Shown here in pieces: positions 9,212 through 28,802 of a stretch of 64,000 bases of DNA. Position numbers and translations under genes: made by a program. Source of the stretch: Coleofasciculus chthonoplastes F2-STO-03. GTDB lineage: Bacteria > Cyanobacteriota > Cyanobacteriia > Cyanobacteriales > Coleofasciculaceae. Location: contig JAVJWO010000005.1 in assembly GCA_040222015.1 (NCBI GenBank), positions 1 through 64,000 of the forward strand, read 5' to 3'. Positions within the stretch are counted from its first letter, which is position 1; each line of letters begins with the position of its first letter. Under the pieces are notes generated by a model. That model was given only the letters and a program-made list of their open reading frames with translations. It did not search any database and was not told the DNA's origin.

Positions 9212-10981
9212 ATGTTGCTGTCGTTACGGATTCAAAATTTTGCCTTAATCGACCAACTGGAATTGGAATTTGCGGCGGGTCTAAATGTTTTGACGGGCGA
9301 AACGGGTGCTGGTAAGTCAATTATTCTGGATGCCATTGATGTCGCGTTGGGAGGAAAAGTCACCCATCGTTTGATTCGCACCGGGGAAAAACGGGCGCTG
9401 GTTGAGGCGACGTTTCGCATCGATGGGACTTTGATGGCTTGGTTGAGTGAACAGGAAATTGATTTACTTGATGAAGCGGATTTGGTCTGTAGTCGAGAGA
9501 TTACGGCTAAACAGAACTCCCTGCGATCGCGATCGCGAATTAATGGGATTTTGGTGAATCGTCGCTTGATGGAACAATTACGCGATCGCTTGGTGGAAAT
9601 TACCGCCCAAGGTCAAACGGTGCAGCTTTTTGCCTCAACTCGCCAGCGGCGACTGCTTGACTTTTACGGCGGTTTCCCGATTAAAAAGCAACTTGAGCAA
9701 GTCGCTACCGCTTATCTGGCATCTCAGGACGCTTTACAAGCCTTGCAAAAGCGCCGTCAGTCGGAACAGCAACGCCTACAACGCCTCGATTGGCTAGAGT
9801 ATCAAATTCAGGAACTGAGTGCTGCGGATCTGGCTGATCCTGATGAACTGATGGAACTTGAGCAAGAAAGTCAACGGTTAACTCATGTCGTGGAACTCCA
9901 ACAGCACAGTTATCAGGTTTATCAGTCGCTTTACCAAAATGACAGCGGTGCATTTGCCTGCGCCGATTTATTAGGGGAAGCCGAAACCACGTTGAGTGAT
10001 ATGGCGCAATACGACACCCAGTTACAACCGATCCTAGAATTGGTCAGTGGTGCTTTAGCCCAGGTGGTAGAAGCTTCTCATCAAATTAATGCGTATGGGG
10101 ATGGACTGGAAACTGATCCCGAACGCCTGCAAGAGGTTGAAGAACGCATCCAAGCGCTTAAACAAATTTGCCGGAAATATGGACCCACTTTAGCCGATGC
10201 GATCGCGCATTACGAAAAACTTGCCTCAGAATTGGCTGAACTTAGGGGTAACGGTCAATCGTTGGATGAGTTGGAAAAAATTTACCACCAATGTCAGGAA
10301 ACCTTAACAGAAAGCTGTACTCAACTCACCCAGTTACGTCGAGTCGCAGCGGAGGAACTGGAACAGCGTCTGGTGGAACAACTGAAGCCTCTAGCCATGT
10401 CCAAGGTACAATTTCAGGTGGCGATTACGCCGATCGCGCCGACAGTGGCGGGTGCGGATCAAGTCACGTTTTATTTATCTCCCAACCCAGGGGAACCGCT
10501 ACAACCGTTAGCAGCAACGGCATCGGGGGGGGAAATGAGCCGTTTTTTACTGGCATTGAAAGCCTGTTTGTCGAATAGTGGCGACCAAGGCTTGACCTTA
10601 ATTTTTGATGAAATTGACGCTGGGGTATCGGGGCGGGTAGCCAGTGCGATCGCGGAACGACTTCATCACCTGAGCCAGCAAAATCAAGTGTTGTGTGTGA
10701 CTCACCAACCCATCATCGCCGCCATGGCAGATCGGCATTTCCGCGTCGATAAACAGGTGATCGATCAAACCCTCTTACCCGAAACTAAGCAGACAAACAC
10801 GCTCGTTGATCAGGGAATTTCTGAGATTGACCTGCGTACCGTTATTCGCGTCAGTCGCCTCGATCATCATTCTCACCGCCAGGAAGAAATTGCCCAGCTA
10901 GCTGGTGGACAATCGGGTCAAGAAGCCATGACGTTTGCCAATTCACTCCTGACCCAAGCCCGTCATTGGCGTCAGAATTAA
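9212..10981 (+). CDS. recN: DNA repair protein RecN
   Basis: MLLSLRIQNFALID, Walker A GETGAGKS, SGGEMSR signature and FDEIDAGVSG. Probable start is ATG 9212. Confidence 0.97.
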   Translation: MLLSLRIQNFALIDQLELEFAAGLNVLTGETGAGKSIILDAIDVALGGKVTHRLIRTGEKRALVEATFRIDGTLMAWLSEQEIDLLDEADLVCSREITAKQNSLRSRSRINGILVNRRLMEQLRDRLVEITAQGQTVQLFASTRQRRLLDFYGGFPIKKQLEQVATAYLASQDALQALQKRRQSEQQRLQRLDWLEYQIQELSAADLADPDELMELEQESQRLTHVVELQQHSYQVYQSLYQNDSGAFACADLLGEAETTLSDMAQYDTQLQPILELVSGALAQVVEASHQINAYGDGLETDPERLQEVEERIQALKQICRKYGPTLADAIAHYEKLASELAELRGNGQSLDELEKIYHQCQETLTESCTQLTQLRRVAAEELEQRLVEQLKPLAMSKVQFQVAITPIAPTVAGADQVTFYLSPNPGEPLQPLAATASGGEMSRFLLALKACLSNSGDQGLTLIFDEIDAGVSGRVASAIAERLHHLSQQNQVLCVTHQPIIAAMADRHFRVDKQVIDQTLLPETKQTNTLVDQGISEIDLRTVIRVSRLDHHSHRQEEIAQLAGGQSGQEAMTFANSLLTQARHWRQN

Positions 10982-11295: not shown

Positions 11296-13923
11296 ATGAC
11301 AGCTGCATTTTCACCCAGGTCTGCGGATCACAATGGAGATACCGTTGATATAACACCAATCTATACTGACGACCAAAGAGCGCATGAACATCAACCTGCC
11401 TCTGCTGGTGCCCTAGCGGCCACAAATGGAACATTTACGGCGTTTCTTGCGCCCCTGACTCAAGACAGCTTCAAAGAAGTTGTCACGGGGGTGGAAAAGA
11501 AACTCGAAGTTGTTCATCAAACCCTGTCCATGCTCCTCGACAGCCAAGGGTTTGAGACAATTCTTCAGGAGATGCTCAATGCCATCACCTTGAAGACAGC
11601 AGAGCTTTTGGGTGCAGACCGGACAACGATATTTTTACTGGATGAAAATAAAAATGAATTATTTTCGATCGTCGCCGAGGGTGAGAATGGAAAAACCATA
11701 GAACTTCGGATTCCGGCTGATCAGGGAATTGCTGGGGAAGTGGCAACGTTTAAAAAAGTTGTCAATAATCCCTACGATTTCTTCGATGATCCGCGATCAG
11801 AAGGGTCGAAAAAACTCTATAAGACAACCGGATACCGGACGTATACGATGTTGACGCTGCCCTTGCTCAATGAGAAGGGAGACTTAGTGGCAGTGGTTCA
11901 GCTGTTGAATAAGCTAAAACCGGATCATGAGCCTGAGGATGATTTACCCTTAGAAGAAAAAATTGATAAACAGGGTTTTAGCGAAACCGATCAGAAACTT
12001 TTTGAAGAATTTGCCCCCTCCATCCGCCTGATTCTGGAGTCGTCCAAGTCATTTTACCTGGCAACTCAGCAACAGCGAGCGGCTAATGCTCTGATGAAGG
12101 CGACTGAATCCCTGAGTAAGAGCAGTTTAGACTTGGAAGAAACGCTCAAGCGGGTGATGGAGGAAGCTAAGGAGCTGATGAATGCGGATCGCTCGACCTT
12201 GTGGTTGATTGATCACGAACGCAATGATTTGTGGACGAAGATTACTCAGTCTGGCGGCTCGATGAAAGAACTGCGGGTTCCCATCGGAGCGGGTTTTGCT
12301 GGTCGAGTCGGGCTAACGGGTGAAATTCTCAATATCCCGTTTGATCTTTACAATCATCCGGATTCAGAGACATCAAGAAACATCGATCGCAATACGGGGT
12401 ATCGCACCTGTAGCTTGCTGTGTATGCCTGTCTATAACGCAGATGGCGAGTTAATTGGTGTTACCCAATTGGTGAATAAGAAGAAGAAGGGAGAGTTTCC
12501 GGCTTACGAACCAAATCCCGATAAAGAGGAACAAGACGCACCCGAATGCTGGAAGGCGAGTTTCGATCAAAGCGATGTCGCTTTTATGGAAGCCTTTAAT
12601 ATCCAAGCGGGTGTGGCGCTGCAAAATGCGAAGCTGTTTGCCACGGTTAAACAGCAGGAGCAAATGCAGAGGGATATCCTGCGGAGTCTGACCAATGGTG
12701 TAATTTCTACAGACAAAGCCGGTAAAGTTATCGCGGCGAATGAAAGTGCCAAGAAACTGTTGGGCTTTAGTAAGGGAGATACTATCGAAGGGCGATCAGT
12801 TTCCGAATTGATCAAAATTAAAGAGAAAGAGGGTAGCCTTGCCAGCTTTGCTCAATTACTACAGAATGGCTTAGATGCCAAAAGCGAGAAAGACCGCAAT
12901 CAGTACTACCCCGATCAGACGTTGCTAACGCCGAGCAATGAAGAGCATAGCGTGCATTTGTCGATTAACTCCATTGCGGATACTAGCGATCTGACCAATG
13001 TGTATGGGGCGTTGGTGGTGATGGACGACATCAGTGATGAGAAGCGCCTCAAGAGTACAATGTATCGGTACATGACTCAGGAGTTGGCAGAAGAACTGCT
13101 GAAACTGGGTGATGCCAAAATGGGAGGCGATCGCAAAGAAGTTTCGGTGCTGTTTTCTGATATTCGTAGCTACACCACTTTGACCGAAAAACTCCAAGCG
13201 GAAGAAGTGGTGGGAATGCTGAATGAGTATTTTGAATCGATGGTCGAGGCAATTTTCAAGCAGAAAGGTACTCTCGATAAATATATCGGCGATGCAATTA
13301 TGGCGGTATTTGGTTCGCCCTTACCCCTACCCGATCACGCCTGGAGAGCGGTACAAACGGCTGTGGACATGCGCCACCGATTGGCAGATTTTAATGCTAA
13401 TCGTCTGTCACAGAATAAAGAAGAAATCCGAATTGGGATTGGGATTAACTCTGACAGTGTGATTAGCGGCAATATTGGTTCGAGTAAGCGGATGGAGTTC
13501 ACCGCCATTGGCGATGGTGTCAACTTAGGCTCCCGCCTAGAAGGTGCCAGTAAGCAATATGGCTGTGACATTATTATTAGCGAATATACCTTTGCTCCCT
13601 GCCAGGATAGGATTTGGTATCGGGAACTCGATTGCATTCGGGTTAAAGGCAAGAATAAGCCTGTCAGAATTTACGAACTGGTGGGATTGCGTTCTGATCC
13701 CCTTTCTGCCGAAAAAGAGGAAATTATTGAACATTACCACAAAGGACGGGAGCATTATCTCAACCGGAAGTTTACCCGGGCGATGGGTGAATTTGGCATT
13801 ATCCTGGAAGAATTTGACAAAAATGATAAAGCAGTTGCATTACACCTGAAGCGGTGTCAACATTTTCTCCAAGAACCACCACCGGATGACTGGGATGGGG
13901 CTTACACGATGACTGAAAAGTAA
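11296..13923 (+). CDS. cyaB: GAF-GAF-PAS class III adenylate cyclase with C-terminal TPR-like helix (CyaB type)
   Basis: Two GAF domains (LGADRTTIFLLD..YRTYTML; MNADRSTLWLID..YRTCSLLCMP), a PAS domain, and cyclase motifs FSDIRSYT, KYIGDAIM and FTAIGDGVNLGSRLE. Start probably ATG 11296. Confidence 0.9.
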   Translation: MTAAFSPRSADHNGDTVDITPIYTDDQRAHEHQPASAGALAATNGTFTAFLAPLTQDSFKEVVTGVEKKLEVVHQTLSMLLDSQGFETILQEMLNAITLKTAELLGADRTTIFLLDENKNELFSIVAEGENGKTIELRIPADQGIAGEVATFKKVVNNPYDFFDDPRSEGSKKLYKTTGYRTYTMLTLPLLNEKGDLVAVVQLLNKLKPDHEPEDDLPLEEKIDKQGFSETDQKLFEEFAPSIRLILESSKSFYLATQQQRAANALMKATESLSKSSLDLEETLKRVMEEAKELMNADRSTLWLIDHERNDLWTKITQSGGSMKELRVPIGAGFAGRVGLTGEILNIPFDLYNHPDSETSRNIDRNTGYRTCSLLCMPVYNADGELIGVTQLVNKKKKGEFPAYEPNPDKEEQDAPECWKASFDQSDVAFMEAFNIQAGVALQNAKLFATVKQQEQMQRDILRSLTNGVISTDKAGKVIAANESAKKLLGFSKGDTIEGRSVSELIKIKEKEGSLASFAQLLQNGLDAKSEKDRNQYYPDQTLLTPSNEEHSVHLSINSIADTSDLTNVYGALVVMDDISDEKRLKSTMYRYMTQELAEELLKLGDAKMGGDRKEVSVLFSDIRSYTTLTEKLQAEEVVGMLNEYFESMVEAIFKQKGTLDKYIGDAIMAVFGSPLPLPDHAWRAVQTAVDMRHRLADFNANRLSQNKEEIRIGIGINSDSVISGNIGSSKRMEFTAIGDGVNLGSRLEGASKQYGCDIIISEYTFAPCQDRIWYRELDCIRVKGKNKPVRIYELVGLRSDPLSAEKEEIIEHYHKGREHYLNRKFTRAMGEFGIILEEFDKNDKAVALHLKRCQHFLQEPPPDDWDGAYTMTEK

Positions 13924-22619: not shown

Positions 22620-22745
22620 AGTTTAACGCTAAAGTGCCATCGGCAACGGGTTGAGACGCATCCATTGCTTCAAGGTCTATTTACGCTCAAAAGCCTATAG
22701 AGACGTGCCTTGGCGCGTCTTGGAACTCGCCGTTGAGGAAAAAAG
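22620..22745. repeat. 126-bp direct repeat, copy 1 (left island boundary)
   Basis: Identical to 28677-28802 except one base (GTGCCTTGGCG vs GTGCCTTTGCG). Confidence 0.95.
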
Positions 22746-22838: not shown

Positions 22839-23342
22839 ATGTATGAAGTCTATGGACCAGCACCCTGGATCAAGACTGATCGTTACGGGATAACCAAGAC
22901 GCTTCCACCTGAGACATCTGTAATTTGGTACAAAGCCTTGCTGCTGTGTGCCAACGGCGATGGAGAACTGACACAAGCAGAGCGGGATTGGGTAATCGGT
23001 CACGCCACAACTTATCATCCTGAGATGAATGAAAGTCAAATTGATGAACTAATGAACTATAACGGCACCGGTTCGACTGATGACATTGAAAAACTTGTGT
23101 TCAGTGATCCACTCGCCAAAAAGGGACGTTATGTCCTCGTTTATGAAGCGATCCAAGCTTCGGCGGCTGATGGCGAATACAGCGAGGGCGAAAAAGCCAC
23201 CATTCGTAAGATGGCTGGTAGGCTGGGAATTTCTGAAGCCAAGGTGACAGAACTAGAGAACCTCTATGCAGAGGAGACGGCATTGAGGGAGAAGCGTATC
23301 AAAATCTGGCATCCTGAGGGTATACCTGGTGAGGATATGTAG
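22839..23342 (+). CDS. TerB-like (tellurite-resistance fold) protein
   Basis: Two TerB-type half motifs, ANGDGELTQAERDWV and SAADGEYSEGEKATIRKMAGRLGIS. Confidence 0.75.
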   Translation: MYEVYGPAPWIKTDRYGITKTLPPETSVIWYKALLLCANGDGELTQAERDWVIGHATTYHPEMNESQIDELMNYNGTGSTDDIEKLVFSDPLAKKGRYVLVYEAIQASAADGEYSEGEKATIRKMAGRLGISEAKVTELENLYAEETALREKRIKIWHPEGIPGEDM

Positions 23343-23346
23343 CACT

Positions 23347-24354
23347 CTATCTACGAAGGGCAACGACTGCATCAATTGACGGCAGTCGCTGAGTTTCAAG
23401 CAGCTCAAAGCCTGCCCGAGTGAGTAGGGATGCAAACTCAGCCAGGGTACGCTCTCCTGGTCCCCCACTCCCCCCCGGAGCGCCATGAACCAGTAGCATC
23501 TGTAGATTCTTAATCCCGATATAAGGGTTGTTAGTGAGGTGATCCTCAATCAACTCAAAAATATAAAGCTTGTTCCCAGAGCCCATAGAGTTGCTCACAT
23601 GGTTGAGAATGTTATGGGCTTGCTCGTCTGAATAGGAGTGTAAAATGCGCTTGATCATGGCATCACCCGGAATATTGGGCAGTACCCTATGGATGTCAAC
23701 GCCGACAGTCTTTAGTCGTGGAATCGGTTCGATCCGGTTGACGACATCTGGAAAATCGAAAAGCTGCCCCTGCACATCTTGATACTGACGCAGTACTCCA
23801 GCAATGAGCATCCCATTCCCACCGGCAATTTCGGTAAGATGCTCTGATGCCGAAAAGTCGAAGCCCTGTAAAATATCCCGCACTTCGATCCGTGACATGG
23901 ATTCCATGCCTTTGTCAAAAGCTGCTGCGAGTTCTTGGTGTTCTCTTAAATAATCATAAAAAAGGCGATCGCGTCCAAGTTGGTAAATACTTTTGCCAGT
24001 ACGCAGCAACTGCTCCCAGAGATCTCGCCTTTGCTGGTGTTGGGCGGATTGAGCCAATTGACAGAATTCCTGCCATGATCTGAGGGAAAATTCCGATTCT
24101 AGGGTCAAGTGTCGCGAGACATCCGTCAGTGAAACGGTGAAATCTGACTCCATCACAAATAAGCCAAAATGGGCAAGTCCACGCAAGCAGCGATAGAGTG
24201 CCCGCTGATGTGTTCCTGTCCGCTTTACTAACTCGGATAAGGGCAAAGGATCTGCAGCAAGATAGTCAAACACCCCAAGCCCAATACAGGCTTCCGTGAA
24301 ATGTGAGACGATCCGATAGTCCAATATGCAAAACATCTGTTGATAGGGAATCAT
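23347..24354 (-). CDS. SAM-dependent O-methyltransferase family (dimerisation domain plus Rossmann fold)
   Basis: N-terminal LGVFDYLA..ELVKRTG..LYRCLRGLA, motif I EIAGGNG, LFDFPDVV, KRILHSYSD and GERTLAEF. Confidence 0.85.
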   Translation of the reverse strand: MIPYQQMFCILDYRIVSHFTEACIGLGVFDYLAADPLPLSELVKRTGTHQRALYRCLRGLAHFGLFVMESDFTVSLTDVSRHLTLESEFSLRSWQEFCQLAQSAQHQQRRDLWEQLLRTGKSIYQLGRDRLFYDYLREHQELAAAFDKGMESMSRIEVRDILQGFDFSASEHLTEIAGGNGMLIAGVLRQYQDVQGQLFDFPDVVNRIEPIPRLKTVGVDIHRVLPNIPGDAMIKRILHSYSDEQAHNILNHVSNSMGSGNKLYIFELIEDHLTNNPYIGIKNLQMLLVHGAPGGSGGPGERTLAEFASLLTRAGFELLETQRLPSIDAVVALRR

Positions 24355-24433
24355 ACGCTATAGTACCCTCTTTATAATCCTTCGGTACATTTTTATCTCC
24401 TGCTCCGGAGTTCCCTGCTCCCCCGCTAGTCAC

Positions 24434-25126
24434 TTATTTAGGTAATTGAGACAGACACAGATTTTGTACAGCCAAGAAATGCCCGATCGCATCTTCATAG
24501 GATGTGGCAAAGGACTCGTTGAGCAACCTGCGTGTGTTCTGTAAGACTTCAGGATTGATTGGCATCAATGCCTGCTGAGATTCTTGAATTGCCTTTTCCA
24601 ATGTCGTTGTTTCGCATTGGCGATCGAGAATCCCCAATACAGTTGCTTCTGAAGCAGACAACTGTACACCGGTAAAGAGCAAGCGACGCGCAGCACCTAT
24701 TCCTGTATATTTTGCCAGTCGGAATATACTCATTCCAGGCAGGTAACCTTCTTTGACTTCCGGCGCGTGGAATATTGAGCGGTTTGTTGCCACACGATAA
24801 TCGCAGGCAAGAGCCAATTGAAAATGAAAACGGGTACAAAATCCATCAATACAGGCAATAGAAGCTCCTGCAAAACTTTCCACGCGCCGTAGGAATTTTT
24901 CCCACTTGCTGCAATGGTCAATATTGGGAGGAGCTAGTTTAGTGGTTTGTTGCTGGGTACTTAGCCCCTGAAATACGATCAGCGTACAAGGGCTTTCATC
25001 TTCCAAATAATCCATCAACTCGATTAAATCCGACAGCAACATCTGATTCAGACTGCTCGAATCCGACCATTGTAAATGCACATTGGCGATGGTATCCTCT
25101 TCGGTCAAGTTTATATATTGCTTCAT
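24434..25126 (-). CDS. dpgB: DpgB-like enoyl-CoA hydratase/isomerase
   Basis: Crotonase fold. SKWEKFLRRVE resembles the DpgB (S/N)KWERALRRLE motif; also QLALACDYRVA and LPGMSIFRL. Adjacent to dpgA. Start at 25126 (alternative 25150). Confidence 0.75.
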   Translation of the reverse strand: MKQYINLTEEDTIANVHLQWSDSSSLNQMLLSDLIELMDYLEDESPCTLIVFQGLSTQQQTTKLAPPNIDHCSKWEKFLRRVESFAGASIACIDGFCTRFHFQLALACDYRVATNRSIFHAPEVKEGYLPGMSIFRLAKYTGIGAARRLLFTGVQLSASEATVLGILDRQCETTTLEKAIQESQQALMPINPEVLQNTRRLLNESFATSYEDAIGHFLAVQNLCLSQLPK

Positions 25127-25128
25127 TC

Positions 25129-26202
25129 TCAAAATTCCCCTAAGCAGCATTCAATGGTGGAGCCTGGTCCCATCGTTATCATGACAACAGAATCTCCACT
25201 TCGGGCTACACCCTCCTCCAATAGTTTTTCATGGGAGAACAGAAAAGACGCAGAAGATAAGTTACCATAATTTCGTAAAATATCCGTCGTATGGCGCACA
25301 TCATGTTCGGTAATATTTAAGGAATATTTAATCGAATCAATAACTTTGCGTCCACCGGAATGAATAATCCAGTGCTGAATATTGCGGCGTTTGCGGTCAA
25401 AACGCTGTAATAAATTATCCACAGGTGTCCTAACCTGCCAACCTAGCAGGTACGGAATTTGTTTATCCAGGTATAGAGAATATTTGCCCTCCTGAAAATC
25501 AAGTCGGATGGCGTCAATGGCGTCTGGGATAATGTGGGAACTGAAGCCAAGAATCTTGGGACCGATGGGTACTACAGGAAAGGGTTTTGCACAAATCACA
25601 GCGGCGGCGGCGCCATCCCCGAACAGGGAATTAACCACTGCAGTATTGATAGTCTCATCAATAACGTACATGGCAGAGCACACTTCCACACAAAGTAACA
25701 GACCGATTGCCTCCGGGTGGATGGCACAAAAATTAACCACTGGTTGTAAGCCGTTTAATCCCCCGTTACACCCCATGCCCACAATATCAATACGGTGAAT
25801 ATCTGAACGCATATCCAAGGCTTTGATATAGAGTGCCGTGAGGCTCGGACACAGTAGACCGGTGGTGGATACTACTGCGATGTAGTCAATATCTTGAGGG
25901 ATAAGTGCAACCTTTTTCAACACCTTTTTTATGGCGGACAATCCAATATCCAGAGCGATGCGCTGGTGTTTGTCCAGTAACTCCCCAGGACTTTCGTTGG
26001 GTATACTGCCATCCGGCTCAGGCTTGGGCAGGCAAAGATGTCGGGATTTAATATGGGAATTACTGAAGATTTTGTTGATTTTTTTATCTGTTATCCCAAA
26101 AAACTCAAGCACTTCCGATTGCGTATATTTTGGCGATGGTGTTTCTGTCGCGATCGCAATTAGCCTTGGACAAATTGAAGCGGTTGGCATAATTTGCTCC
26201 AT
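25129..26202 (-). CDS. dpgA: Type III PKS, DpgA-like (3,5-dihydroxyphenylacetyl-CoA synthase)
   Basis: Cys-His-Asn triad (DIVGMGCNG, IHSGGRKVID, YGNLSS). DpgA-like strings GELLDKH, TAVVNSLFGDG, HDVRHTT, SFLFS and TMGPGSTIE. Confidence 0.9.
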   Translation of the reverse strand: MEQIMPTASICPRLIAIATETPSPKYTQSEVLEFFGITDKKINKIFSNSHIKSRHLCLPKPEPDGSIPNESPGELLDKHQRIALDIGLSAIKKVLKKVALIPQDIDYIAVVSTTGLLCPSLTALYIKALDMRSDIHRIDIVGMGCNGGLNGLQPVVNFCAIHPEAIGLLLCVEVCSAMYVIDETINTAVVNSLFGDGAAAAVICAKPFPVVPIGPKILGFSSHIIPDAIDAIRLDFQEGKYSLYLDKQIPYLLGWQVRTPVDNLLQRFDRKRRNIQHWIIHSGGRKVIDSIKYSLNITEHDVRHTTDILRNYGNLSSASFLFSHEKLLEEGVARSGDSVVMITMGPGSTIECCLGEF

Positions 26203-26934
26203 TTACTCTGCTTGGGTTTGGCTCTGATAGAGTAGCGCTTGGGAAACCGCTTCTATACTGGCATCTCCCAGGCTAGTATTAACCGATTGCAGAGCCATTT
26301 TTGCCAGACGGATAGCCAGGGGATTGCGTCGCGCGGCAGCTTCGGCAAGGTGAATCGCATCTTCGAGAACATGATCGCTGATTTGAGACACCAGTCCCCA
26401 TTCCAAAGCTGTTGCGCTATCCACTTTCTGTCCGAAGAGAATCATTGCCTTTGCTCTAGCTTCGTTAACAATTTTTGTCAGGCGACGAATCCCTCCGGCT
26501 GCGGGAATCAACCCCAAATCGATTTCAGGGAGTGAAAACCAACTTGAGGCACTACAGATACGGAAATCACAAGCGAGAGCCAGTTCCAAACCACCTGCAA
26601 TTGCCGGTCCTTGAATCGCAGCCACCGTGGGCCATGGCGTATTCGCCCAGTTATCAAAAAGCTGTCGGCTCAGTAAATTCAACCCATCATTATAAGATTT
26701 ATTCGCCAAACTAGATATATCCGCACCACTGCAAAATACTTTCTCCCCTGCACCCGTGACTACCCCCGCACGAATTGACGGATTAGTCACAGCTGCTGCC
26801 AAATGTTCTGCGAACTGGTGGAGCATGGCATTATGGTAAGCATTAGATTTCTCTGGGCGATCGAGGATAAAGAGTGCAATGTTGTTTGATTCCCCAACCT
26901 GCTTCATTTGTACAGTACCCGAAAGTTTTGCCAT
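26203..26934 (-). CDS. Enoyl-CoA hydratase/isomerase (DpgD-like role inferred)
   Basis: LDRPEKSNA, FCSGAD, AIAGGLELALACD and LPEIDLGLIPAAGG with both catalytic Glu residues. Its stop abuts the dpgA start (TAAATG). Confidence 0.85.
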   Translation of the reverse strand: MAKLSGTVQMKQVGESNNIALFILDRPEKSNAYHNAMLHQFAEHLAAAVTNPSIRAGVVTGAGEKVFCSGADISSLANKSYNDGLNLLSRQLFDNWANTPWPTVAAIQGPAIAGGLELALACDFRICSASSWFSLPEIDLGLIPAAGGIRRLTKIVNEARAKAMILFGQKVDSATALEWGLVSQISDHVLEDAIHLAEAAARRNPLAIRLAKMALQSVNTSLGDASIEAVSQALLYQSQTQAE

Positions 26935-26985
26935 TTTCTTGAGTATTTTTTTGGCTTGTCTAATCCGAACCTAAAATCTTTAAAT

Positions 26986-28413
26986 TTATGAAGATAATAA
27001 TTGAGCAACGGCTGCTTCCATATCCCCCATTGATATTTCCGGGTCAGTAGGATAAGCTGCACGAGACCACTGCACCAAATATTGGGGACCTACATTGTCA
27101 TCTACCGAGCTACCGCCAAAGAAACCTGTGCCGATTACTGGTCCGGGAGTCAGATTGGTAGAGACACCGCTGGAGCCTTTGACCCCCTGGGTATTCACCG
27201 CAATTCGGCAGACTGGTAATGCCGCAGTATAACGGGCTACAACTACAGGGTCATTACTGTGAATCACGGCGGAGTGCCCTTTGCCAATCAGTTCAAGCAT
27301 TGCTAAAGCCGTGTCAATTGCCGCTTGTACCCCGTCAACTGTAATATATCCAATCACTGGAAACAATTTCTCTTGGCTGAGGGGTTCATCTGCACCCACG
27401 GCGTCAAGGGTAACCACCAGGCTTTTGGTATCCTCTGGTACAGAAAAACCTGCCTGCTGTGCAATCCAGAGCGCATTTTTTCCCTGAGCGGCAGGATTGA
27501 CTCCAGCGTTAGAGAAAAGATAAGCACGCAATTTTTGCTCGGCTTCTCCTGTGACAAAATATCCGCCCGATCTACCCATAGCCGCTTTGAGCTGAGGATT
27601 AATGGAATGATCGGCAAGTACCACGGATTCACAGACGCAAGGCAGTCCATTATCGAAACTGTTGCTGGCGATAATTTGTTGTGCGGCAACAGTAATGTCA
27701 GCTGACTGATGCACGAAACAGGGCACATTACCCGGTCCCATACCGATGGCGGGATTACCGGAACGGTAAGCTGCACGCACTCGGTTTGGACCACCGGTTG
27801 CCAGAATTAGGCTAACACGGGGCGATTCCATCAAACAGTTCAGGGCGAGGATACTGGGGTTATGGATGGTTTGAATCGCACCTGCGGGTGCACCAGCTTT
27901 CTCAGCCACTTCCGCCATTAAATGAATGGCGTGTATCGAGCATTCTTTAGCCGCAGGGTGAGGGGAAAAAATAACGGTATTACGAGTCATCATGCTGACT
28001 ATCGCCTTATAATACACTGTCATCACTGGATTGGTGCTGGGTATTAGAGCAGCGATAATGCCTGCGGGCTTGGGAAAGCTAATAATTTTCTGCTCATAAT
28101 CAATAACGGGATCTATAAAATCAGCAGCTTGGTATCTTTCTAGTAGACCAATTGAACAGTCAAGATTTTTTTTCACATTATCATTAACGTTACCGTAGCC
28201 AGTATCACGTACTAACCATTCAGCATAGAATTCAGCCTTCTCCTTTCCTGCATGACTCATCGCCTGAATAATTTTTTGTATCTGTGCTGTGGTATGAGTA
28301 CTAAAAATACGTGCAGCCCTTTGAGCTCTATCGATTAGCCAATCGACTTCCTGTTGAATTTGATTCGATTCTGCCTGATGACTAATAGTATTCACTGCTT
28401 TTACCTTGATCAA
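26986..28413 (-). CDS. CoA-acylating aldehyde dehydrogenase / acyl-CoA reductase (like the AdhE N-terminal domain, EutE or PduP)
   Basis: PAGIIAALIPSTNP, FSPHPAA, ILATGG, GMGPGNVP, SFDNGLPC (catalytic Cys), EKLFPV and GHSAVIHS. The start codon is uncertain. Confidence 0.9.
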   Translation of the reverse strand: MIKVKAVNTISHQAESNQIQQEVDWLIDRAQRAARIFSTHTTAQIQKIIQAMSHAGKEKAEFYAEWLVRDTGYGNVNDNVKKNLDCSIGLLERYQAADFIDPVIDYEQKIISFPKPAGIIAALIPSTNPVMTVYYKAIVSMMTRNTVIFSPHPAAKECSIHAIHLMAEVAEKAGAPAGAIQTIHNPSILALNCLMESPRVSLILATGGPNRVRAAYRSGNPAIGMGPGNVPCFVHQSADITVAAQQIIASNSFDNGLPCVCESVVLADHSINPQLKAAMGRSGGYFVTGEAEQKLRAYLFSNAGVNPAAQGKNALWIAQQAGFSVPEDTKSLVVTLDAVGADEPLSQEKLFPVIGYITVDGVQAAIDTALAMLELIGKGHSAVIHSNDPVVVARYTAALPVCRIAVNTQGVKGSSGVSTNLTPGPVIGTGFFGGSSVDDNVGPQYLVQWSRAAYPTDPEISMGDMEAAVAQLLSS

Positions 28414-28676: not shown

Positions 28677-28802
28677 AGTTTAACGCTAAAGTGCCATCGG
28701 CAACGGGTTGAGACGCATCCATTGCTTCAAGGTCTATTTACGCTCAAAAGCCTATAGAGACGTGCCTTTGCGCGTCTTGGAACTCGCCGTTGAGGAAAAA
28801 AG
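28677..28802. repeat. 126-bp direct repeat, copy 2 (right island boundary)
   Basis: 125/126 identical to 22620-22745. Confidence 0.95.

Follow-up and report, generated by a model that had tools for sequence, protein, structure and literature searches.

A mobile six-gene cassette of Coleofasciculus chthonoplastes combines a DpgA-family polyketide synthase with a putative acyl-CoA reductase and a TerB-fold protein

DpgA-type enzymes build an amino-acid precursor of vancomycin. In the accessible text of three reports, DpgA is described as forming 3,5-dihydroxyphenylacetyl-coenzyme A (DPA-CoA) from four malonyl-CoA, with DpgB and DpgD aiding, after which DpgC acts as an oxidising enzyme (PMC5132015, PMC8773403, PMC3849588); the characterised DpgA pathways that we found all run through DpgC. 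Among cyanobacteria, a clade of Moorea and Roseofilum enzymes near DpgA, whose clusters span about 5 kb and encode DpgB too, has been noticed (PMC6836626), as has one Moorea producens enzyme that falls into the DpgA clade and whose cluster is unlike the others (PMC8086630). Here we describe a cassette of Coleofasciculus chthonoplastes F2-STO-03 in which a DpgA-family type III polyketide synthase (PKS) is accompanied by a CoA-acylating aldehyde dehydrogenase (ALDH) and a TerB-fold protein. It lies in the window analysed, namely the first 64 kb of contig C5, and the host genome (7.7 Mb) is 99.99% complete. The cassette is real, conserved and mobile, and was earlier noticed only as an orphan. With moderate confidence, we read it as a mobile stand-alone route to a small, free resorcinol in which DPA-CoA would be reductively released as 3,5-dihydroxyphenylacetaldehyde, methylation being optional; such a swap of DpgC for an ALDH would be a new branch of DpgA chemistry.

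A preliminary description of this DNA, made from the sequence alone, had proposed five co-oriented genes in the order ALDH, crotonase, type III PKS, crotonase and methyltransferase. All five open reading frames (ORFs), which lie on the minus strand, are intact, and both the TAAATG at the crotonase/PKS junction and the 2-nt gap that separates the PKS stop codon from the ATG at 25126 are real. Overlooked at that stage was the sixth member of the unit, a TerB-like gene (22839-23342, plus strand) that converges on the methyltransferase gene and lies 4 nt from its stop. The features of the locus are:

22620..22745, no strand: left copy of a direct repeat, 126 bp, upstream of glgP
22839..23342, plus strand: TerB-fold protein, 167 amino acids (aa), with a Pfam TerB match and a structural match to 2OU3
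23347..24354, minus strand: Methyltransf_2 methyltransferase, S-adenosylmethionine (SAM)-dependent, 335 aa (PF00891 and PF08100)
24434..25126, minus strand: DpgB-like crotonase, about 230 aa from the likely start ATG at 25126 (longest ORF from 25150), best NCBIfam match DpgB
25129..26202, minus strand: DpgA-family type III PKS, 357 aa, above the NF042429 cut-off
26203..26934, minus strand: crotonase-fold enoyl-CoA hydratase, 243 aa (Pfam ECH_1, 167 bits)
26986..28413, minus strand: CoA-acylating ALDH, putative acyl-CoA reductase, 475 aa, best PDB matches acylating ALDHs
28677..28802, no strand: right copy of the direct repeat, 126 bp, 99% identical to the left copy

The remaining intergenic gaps measure 51 nt (ALDH/crotonase) and 79 nt (DpgB-like/methyltransferase), and the Pfam domains follow in the order Aldedh, ECH_1, chalcone-synthase domains, ECH_1, and Methyltransf_2 with its dimerisation domain. 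Scans for promoters and terminators stayed at chance level (7 versus 10.6; 7 versus 7.1). As judged from homologous loci, this arrangement is not due to chance: other cyanobacteria carry these six genes as well, 63-91% identical and set between unrelated flanks. The window also encodes an aldehyde-deformylating oxygenase, is dense in HIP1 sites and has cyanobacterial nearest homologues.

Assignment of the PKS to the DpgA family is borne out by its match to NCBIfam NF042429 (436.6 bits against a cut-off of 425), a cut-off also passed by six of seven related PKSs, the seventh being N-terminally short. The motifs of the type III PKS triad are present (C145-H281-N314, by alignment to Pks11), and the cassette PKS is the only type III PKS match in the genome. 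We built a quick maximum-likelihood tree of 84 PKSs, taken from 48 of 80 DpgA loci of the genome collection (the other 32 being left out) and from protein records, without an outgroup and with DpgC-linked proxies standing in for characterised DpgA. One clade of 28 (Shimodaira-Hasegawa-like approximate likelihood-ratio test, SH-aLRT, 99) takes in all 25 cassette-linked PKSs, its three other members coming without genomic context, and of the rows that do have context, those of the DpgC-type loci L007-L010 stand nearest. Published trees, as their accessible text describes them, put the Moorea and Roseofilum homologues with DpgA (PMC6836626, PMC8086630). At the level of the family, the case for DPA-CoA as the predicted intermediate is strong. 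In one relative (P0162, 596 aa) a crotonase is fused to the PKS, the PKS part spanning residues 246-596; this may be a real fusion or read-through of a TAAATG-type junction.

The downstream crotonase had been called DpgB-like, and DpgB is indeed its best match among 64 NCBIfam families, but its score to NF042431 (98.8 bits) is under the cut-off of 140. A DpgB homologue occurs in 77 of the 80 DpgA loci, mostly directly downstream of dpgA, as in the cassette. The DpgD-like label of the upstream crotonase stands only in the sense of a probable functional stand-in and not of orthology (NF042430, 122.5 bits versus 400): the DpgD model ranks 16th of 73 families, and the protein is a generic enoyl-CoA hydratase. 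It probably does the job of DpgD, because in the DpgC-bearing loci L007-L010 the place just upstream of dpgA is taken by its homologues (42-51%).

The second half of the dihydroxyphenylglycine (Dpg) pathway is not represented. A dpgC gene, already noted as lacking from the window, is missing from the genome, where the best profile score (52.6 bits) is that of the cassette crotonases themselves, and DpgC was detected in none of the five other cassette genomes (best 57 bits). The DpgC-like proteins of L007-L010 score 353-375 bits, under the cut-off of 530, and aminotransferases occur in three of these loci and nonribosomal peptide synthetase (NRPS) genes in three. There is no HpgT-type aminotransferase in the cassette; the aminotransferase beside DpgC in L008, used as a query in the absence of an HpgT profile run, gives a single 22% match in the genome. 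The claim that the window holds no NRPS/PKS assembly line is upheld by a Pfam scan of 17 of its 25 ORFs of at least 250 aa, none of which has such domains; three of the remainder are cassette genes and five were inspected by eye only. An NRPS query has no match on the contig of the cassette. As far as its predicted proteins tell, the cassette resembles the first half of the Dpg pathway in its working, yet is not a member of it. Two of the DpgC-type loci (L008 and L009) are Bacteroidota NRPS clusters in which a Dpg cassette stands with genes of the ornithine cyclodeaminase-like and carbamoyltransferase types; such a host is unusual for a Dpg peptide. A further 53 of the 80 DpgA(-DpgB) loci (within L011-L074), mostly from metagenome-assembled genomes of Myxococcota type, have neither DpgC nor the ALDH and may hold additional, unexplained exits from DPA-CoA.

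The ALDH has acylating ALDHs as its best PDB matches (5J78). Its catalytic residues C259, E348 and H380, assigned after the accessible text of PMC5311937, are invariant across 41 aligned rows, and the general-base Glu is lacking, M225 occupying the position of SucD V208 (offset counted from the Cys). The protein scores below every curated family cut-off, and we rejected an ordinary acetaldehyde dehydrogenase (EutE/AdhE): TIGR02518 (EutH_ACDH) gives 392.8 bits against a cut-off of 620 and NF010378 396.3 against 951, and the ALDH tree places it far from the AdhE of the host, a separate AdhE-like gene elsewhere in the genome whose product is 35% identical. No microcompartment shell genes occur among the six genes or in the scanned flanks.

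In the ALDH tree (70 sequences), 25 PKS-linked ALDHs form one dedicated clade (SH-aLRT 100) to which the host AdhE does not belong; for protein-only records, most of the links were deduced from the matching size of parent contigs, and the labels of P0034 and P0055 were assigned by similarity or genus. Since close homologues cluster trivially, the informative part of the tree consists of four distant linked ALDHs (54-64%), which join the PKS-linked clade ahead of unlinked relatives at 53-61%. This clade is nested among free-standing marine relatives, beyond which lie ALDHs beside a class III aminotransferase, an APH kinase and shell genes. Of 80 metagenome ALDH loci, 75 contain one or more neighbours of the aminotransferase, kinase or shell-associated kind, a setting that may resemble the aminoacetone-utilisation microcompartment. 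A first metagenome scan yielded nothing, and a second yielded ALDH relatives at only 40-58%, none of the 80 with a DpgA-like PKS. The closest unlinked ALDH (58%; L172:805-13701) has as neighbours an operon for a quinohemoprotein amine dehydrogenase and genes for a thiolase and a methylmalonate-semialdehyde dehydrogenase, a gene context that suggests amine-to-acyl-CoA catabolism without a microcompartment.

Residues N79, R211, M225, V260 and P425 are fixed in the PKS-linked clade, and D85 mostly so; the 38 comparison rows without exception have T at the position of V260, which adjoins the Cys, and K at that of N79. These clade-fixed changes occupy active-site positions, M225 being that of the lost general base. 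In the pocket segments, the F and I of 5J78 and the host AdhE correspond to D85 and S415, and the pocket of the cassette ALDH would be roomier and more polar than that of acetaldehyde enzymes or PduP, a trait that is permissive only.

In the route that we favour, DpgA would condense and cyclise four malonyl-CoA, and the two crotonases would speed dehydration and aromatisation to DPA-CoA. The ALDH, replacing oxygenation by DpgC, would take the aryl-acetyl group onto Cys259, free CoA and reduce the bound acyl with NAD(P)H to 3,5-dihydroxyphenylacetaldehyde. Pfam and NCBIfam find no thioesterase, ligase or aldehyde-generating enzyme in the cassette; with neither DpgC nor a thioesterase nor an assembly line, the ALDH is therefore the only evident candidate for cleaving the thioester, and this context gives moderate support to reductive release. 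The acylating ALDH family is described, in the text accessible to us, as reversible and as including acyl-CoA reductases (PMC12041015). Also on the side of this route are the single clades formed by the linked ALDHs and the linked PKSs, the absence of DpgC from the cassette genomes, the 80 DpgA loci, none of which has both DpgC and the ALDH, the roomier pocket, and dN/dS values of 0.03-0.18 where these could be computed. The direction, cofactor and product of the ALDH step are what we infer from these data. The methyltransferase might modify a phenol or the ring itself, either ahead of release or afterwards, and the 2-arylethanol may arise through alcohol dehydrogenases of the host. Reduction of an acyl-CoA by NADH requires a pull, which methylation, diffusion, conversion to the alcohol or binding to the TerB-fold protein could provide; this protein might bind or process the aldehyde, thereby pulling the unfavourable reduction and shielding the cell. 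For the final product and the part of the TerB-fold protein, these suggestions are tentative.

Several points weigh against reductive release. NADH, in a phototroph, is the weaker reductant pool, and it is the predicted cofactor of the cassette ALDH because P151-H152 is kept, a Pro-His pair that excludes NADP in Cphy1178 according to the accessible text (PMC4762007). The acyl-pocket positions given for related enzymes in PMC10249356, again as far as its text is accessible (PduP L158/V331/L483; SucD K70/S243/T395), map to about C86/V260/S414 in the cassette ALDH by sequence offset and not by structure, and the roomy pocket is not diagnostic, as it is largely common to the unlinked sister clade. 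To judge by their gene neighbours, the nearest unlinked relatives look catabolic, that is, oxidative in direction, and no aryl-acetyl-CoA-reducing member of the acylating ALDH family was found in the accessible literature. An alcohol dehydrogenase is absent from the cassette. Finally, the mutual exclusivity of DpgC and the ALDH (21 of the 80 DpgA loci with DpgC, six with a cassette-type ALDH, none with both and 53 with neither) is descriptive only, since these loci are kin and were selected by pattern.

Part of this evidence lends itself to an unlikely alternative: the ALDH may work oxidatively and furnish a DpgA variant with its starter acyl-CoA, whether acetyl, propionyl or a larger one, so that the product would be a pyrone or else a resorcinol alkylated on the ring or varied in its chain. 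The ancestral context of the enzyme runs from aldehyde to acyl-CoA, its P-H motif is of the NAD type and its gene comes first in the usual order. Yet the four units that DpgA is described as using, the starter among them, are all malonyl-CoA, the cassette has no source of aldehyde, the host already has AdhE, and an oxidative ALDH would leave the pathway with no release enzyme.

The methyltransferase has both PF00891 and the dimerisation domain PF08100, and its SAM and His/Glu motifs are conserved in five of five aligned sequences, with HS where most relatives carry HD. It is isolated: two representatives at 61-62% and one fragment stand apart from all others among the matches listed, which reach at most 36%. 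By these comparisons it is a cassette-specific lineage with intact motifs; its characterised relatives all stay at or below about 35% identity, a range in which O- and C-methylation cannot be told apart from sequence. It looks optional in the cassette, as no orthologue turned up in the genome of one cassette-bearing strain (G418).

The TerB-like protein matches PF05099 (29.7 against a cut-off of 24.4), and its predicted structure (predicted local distance difference test, pLDDT, 92.9) matches PDB 2OU3 with a Z of 18 and 35% identity over 154 residues. That entry is Npun_F6341 of Nostoc punctiforme, a COG3793 TerB-fold protein with which it shares the fold and both acidic DG..E motifs; unlike Npun_F6341, it is embedded in a polyketide cassette with no adjoining ter genes. 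D41, E48, D50, D111, E118 and E140 are invariant. At 87-91% identity in six of six cyanobacterial loci, the TerB-like gene is the most conserved of the cassette, and its neighbours in all six are cassette genes and not those of a ter operon, the comparison being confined to these neighbourhoods with no search for other ter genes in the genome. The ESM Atlas returned only generic TerB and methyltransferase clusters. Three TerB-like paralogues lie elsewhere in the genome (C6:14082, C12:26411 and C134:29660; 43, 32 and 28%).

Co-inheritance and this extreme conservation, together with the ligands of 2OU3, reportedly zinc and indole-3-carbaldehyde, underlie another reading, itself unlikely. DpgA, DpgB, the acyl-CoA reductase and the TerB-fold protein would constitute a four-gene core and a third exit from DPA-CoA, with the TerB-fold protein as a genuine part of the pathway. 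Acting as a metal-binding enzyme or as a carrier, it might take up 3,5-dihydroxyphenylacetaldehyde and convert it, for example by deformylation to orcinol (and then, through methylation, orcinol ethers) or by coupling. If true, a TerB-family protein would gain a defined small-molecule reaction, and mat cyanobacteria, including the Roseofilum of black-band disease, would have a signal or defence compound in common that is diffusible.

Synteny comparison agrees with the earlier notion of a stand-alone unit, showing the six-gene set in other cyanobacteria. Among the 80 DpgA loci, six are cyanobacterial (PKS 70-81% identical), and all of these have the ALDH and the TerB-like gene; four contain all six genes in the same order. 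Of the other two, L003 is cut by its contig, a methyltransferase (70%) lying on another contig of the same genome, and L006 is reduced to TerB-PKS-DpgB-ALDH, the best methyltransferase match in its genome (completeness not given) being 30%. Flanks differ between hosts, except in two Roseofilum-like loci. The ALDH was present in 5 of 400 genomes of the order and the PKS in 1 of 60 relatives. Named homologues come from many Roseofilum strains, Moorena producens, Symploca (TerB-like only), Ca. Albibeggiatoa, in which ALDH WP_353570387 and DpgA WP_353570389 are two accessions apart, and Ca. Kentron. By homology, related cassettes are patchy in marine cyanobacteria and giant sulfur bacteria and common in Roseofilum. 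A single MMETSP record (7,095 nt) carries both ALDH and PKS homologues and thereby hints at their co-transcription in a relative. The ratio of nonsynonymous to synonymous substitution rates (dN/dS) is 0.085-0.18 against L001 and, where unsaturated (5 of 18 comparisons being saturated), 0.03-0.12 against three other loci; the TerB-like gene has the lowest value of the six genes in the three loci where this is computable. One genome (G036, L083:7109-12496) holds a decaying cassette, with a PKS frameshift near the start and a methyltransferase cut to 120 aa by internal deletion, the ALDH, crotonases and TerB-like gene being still intact. In L005 (9885-11295), two tandem ORFs, 84% identical and without a Pfam match, lie on the opposite strand between the DpgB-like and methyltransferase genes.

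The cassette sits between the 126-bp direct repeats, whose copies differ at one base. We rejected a genome-wide repeat or an insertion sequence (IS) end as their nature: the 7.7-Mb genome holds only these two copies, and the repeat matches native intergenic DNA of the congener G001. None of eight congeners has the PKS; in seven, both flanks lie on one contig without the cassette (an empty site), and in the eighth the flanks end separate contigs. At its empty site, G001 has one copy of the 126 bp (98.4%), and the window with the cassette excised matches it at 285 of 300 columns. The alignments fit a recent integration between genes, next to glgP, in which 126 bp of the host's DNA were duplicated. 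Loss of the cassette from G001 by recombination is a possible alternative, weakened by the fact that the remaining congeners also lack it. In a Roseofilum (L002), an 83-bp direct repeat (90%) bounds the cassette (L002:5674-5755 and 11704-11786). Composition hardly points to a foreign source (GC 46.6 versus 45.4%; codon adaptation at the 2nd-24th percentile), and the 5.9-kb cassette has two HIP1 sites, against 0.78 per kb. Two further observations concern these sites. L002 has a 143-bp tandem duplication between the DpgB-like and methyltransferase genes (9820-10102). Beside its empty site, G001 carries a 1.45-kb element (L095:2537-4037) with a 404-aa frame that appears by eye to be IS200/IS605 transposase-like, and copies 78-85% similar are present in the host genome; as this element lies in the same intergenic region, the glgP site may be an insertion hot spot.

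Less probable than the two readings already weighed is that the product is free 3,5-dihydroxyphenylacetate, or its methyl ether or ester, formed through host thioesterases or spontaneous release, the ALDH only salvaging or detoxifying aldehyde. Dihydroxyphenylacetic acid is a known DpgA output in the accessible text of PMC8773403, and a cassette without an alcohol dehydrogenase would suit it; the ALDH-PKS linkage, however, is tight over deep divergence, and the ALDH is retained even in the reduced L006 version, without the upstream crotonase and methyltransferase. More improbable still, the ALDH might intercept a pre-aromatic (hydrated cyclohexanedione) CoA ester, or the non-DpgD crotonase and the TerB-fold protein might redirect it, towards a non-aromatic or rearranged C7-C8 product. 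The lack of a true DpgD, the under-cut-off score of the DpgB-like protein and the unexplained, highly conserved TerB-fold gene would agree with this, but the same type of crotonase accompanies DpgC, which needs aromatic DPA-CoA, in L007-L010. Provision of a starter or aldehyde in trans for an NRPS/PKS elsewhere, to which NRPS-like matches on six contigs of the host genome lend some colour, is the least credible, the cassette being a strain-specific insertion absent from eight of eight congeners, with flanks that vary by host and contain no NRPS in L001-L006.

The preliminary description had not recognised this pathway from cyanobacteria, a statement that has to be amended, the cluster type having been noticed there earlier as an orphan (PMC6836626, PMC8086630). 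Since the closest homologues include named proteins of Roseofilum and Moorena producens, the orphan DpgA clusters of Moorea and Roseofilum very probably belong to the same cassette family. In their accessible text, the two accounts mention DpgA and DpgB only, or suggest glycopeptide-like products; that text gives no product and no role for an ALDH, methyltransferase or TerB gene, which figures or supplements may depict. For Roseofilum, the accessible part of PMC9967302 has no mention of 'type III', and that of a 2026 bioRxiv survey none of 'Dpg'. No characterised biosynthetic gene cluster or product for this gene set was found in the literature covered, which left out most subscription journals. 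If the reductive route holds, the ALDH would be the first aryl-acetyl-CoA reductase in its family and a useful catalyst for making resorcinol aldehydes and alcohols out of malonyl-CoA. At 5.9 kb, the unit is small enough to be expressed in one piece, making its product and the biochemical role of the TerB-fold protein directly testable, and its spread across marine cyanobacteria, Roseofilum and giant sulfur bacteria means that the product may matter in mats and diseased coral.

Compared with dpgABCD plus hpgT of glycopeptide producers and Xanthomonas META-B, the cassette shares a DpgA-family PKS followed by a DpgB-like crotonase, a second crotonase and predicted DPA-CoA. It differs in lacking DpgC, a linked aminotransferase and NRPS, in a second crotonase that is not DpgD, and in adding the acylating ALDH, methyltransferase and TerB-fold gene. 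A diverted DpgA core with an aldehyde-handling dehydrogenase is likewise found in the 3,5-dihydroxybenzoate starter modules of kendomycin and venemycin (Ken2-7, VemA-F). These, in the accessible text, keep DpgC, add a thiamine diphosphate (TDP) decarboxylase, oxidise the benzaldehyde and feed a type I PKS (PMC5132015), whereas the cassette has no DpgC, decarboxylase or type I PKS, and its ALDH is CoA-acylating. Like the cassette, the hierridin cluster hidABC is small, cyanobacterial and stand-alone, and sets a methyltransferase and a redox enzyme (an oxidoreductase) beside a type III PKS, but HidC is described in the accessible text as belonging to another PKS clade and making long-chain alkylresorcinols, without crotonases (PMC8086630). 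With PduP, EutE/AdhE, SucD and the microcompartment-type CoA-acylating ALDHs, finally, the cassette ALDH shares the catalytic Cys/His/Glu and the missing general-base Glu; it is set apart from them by the absence of shell genes, by its separate PKS-linked clade and by its fixed active-site changes.

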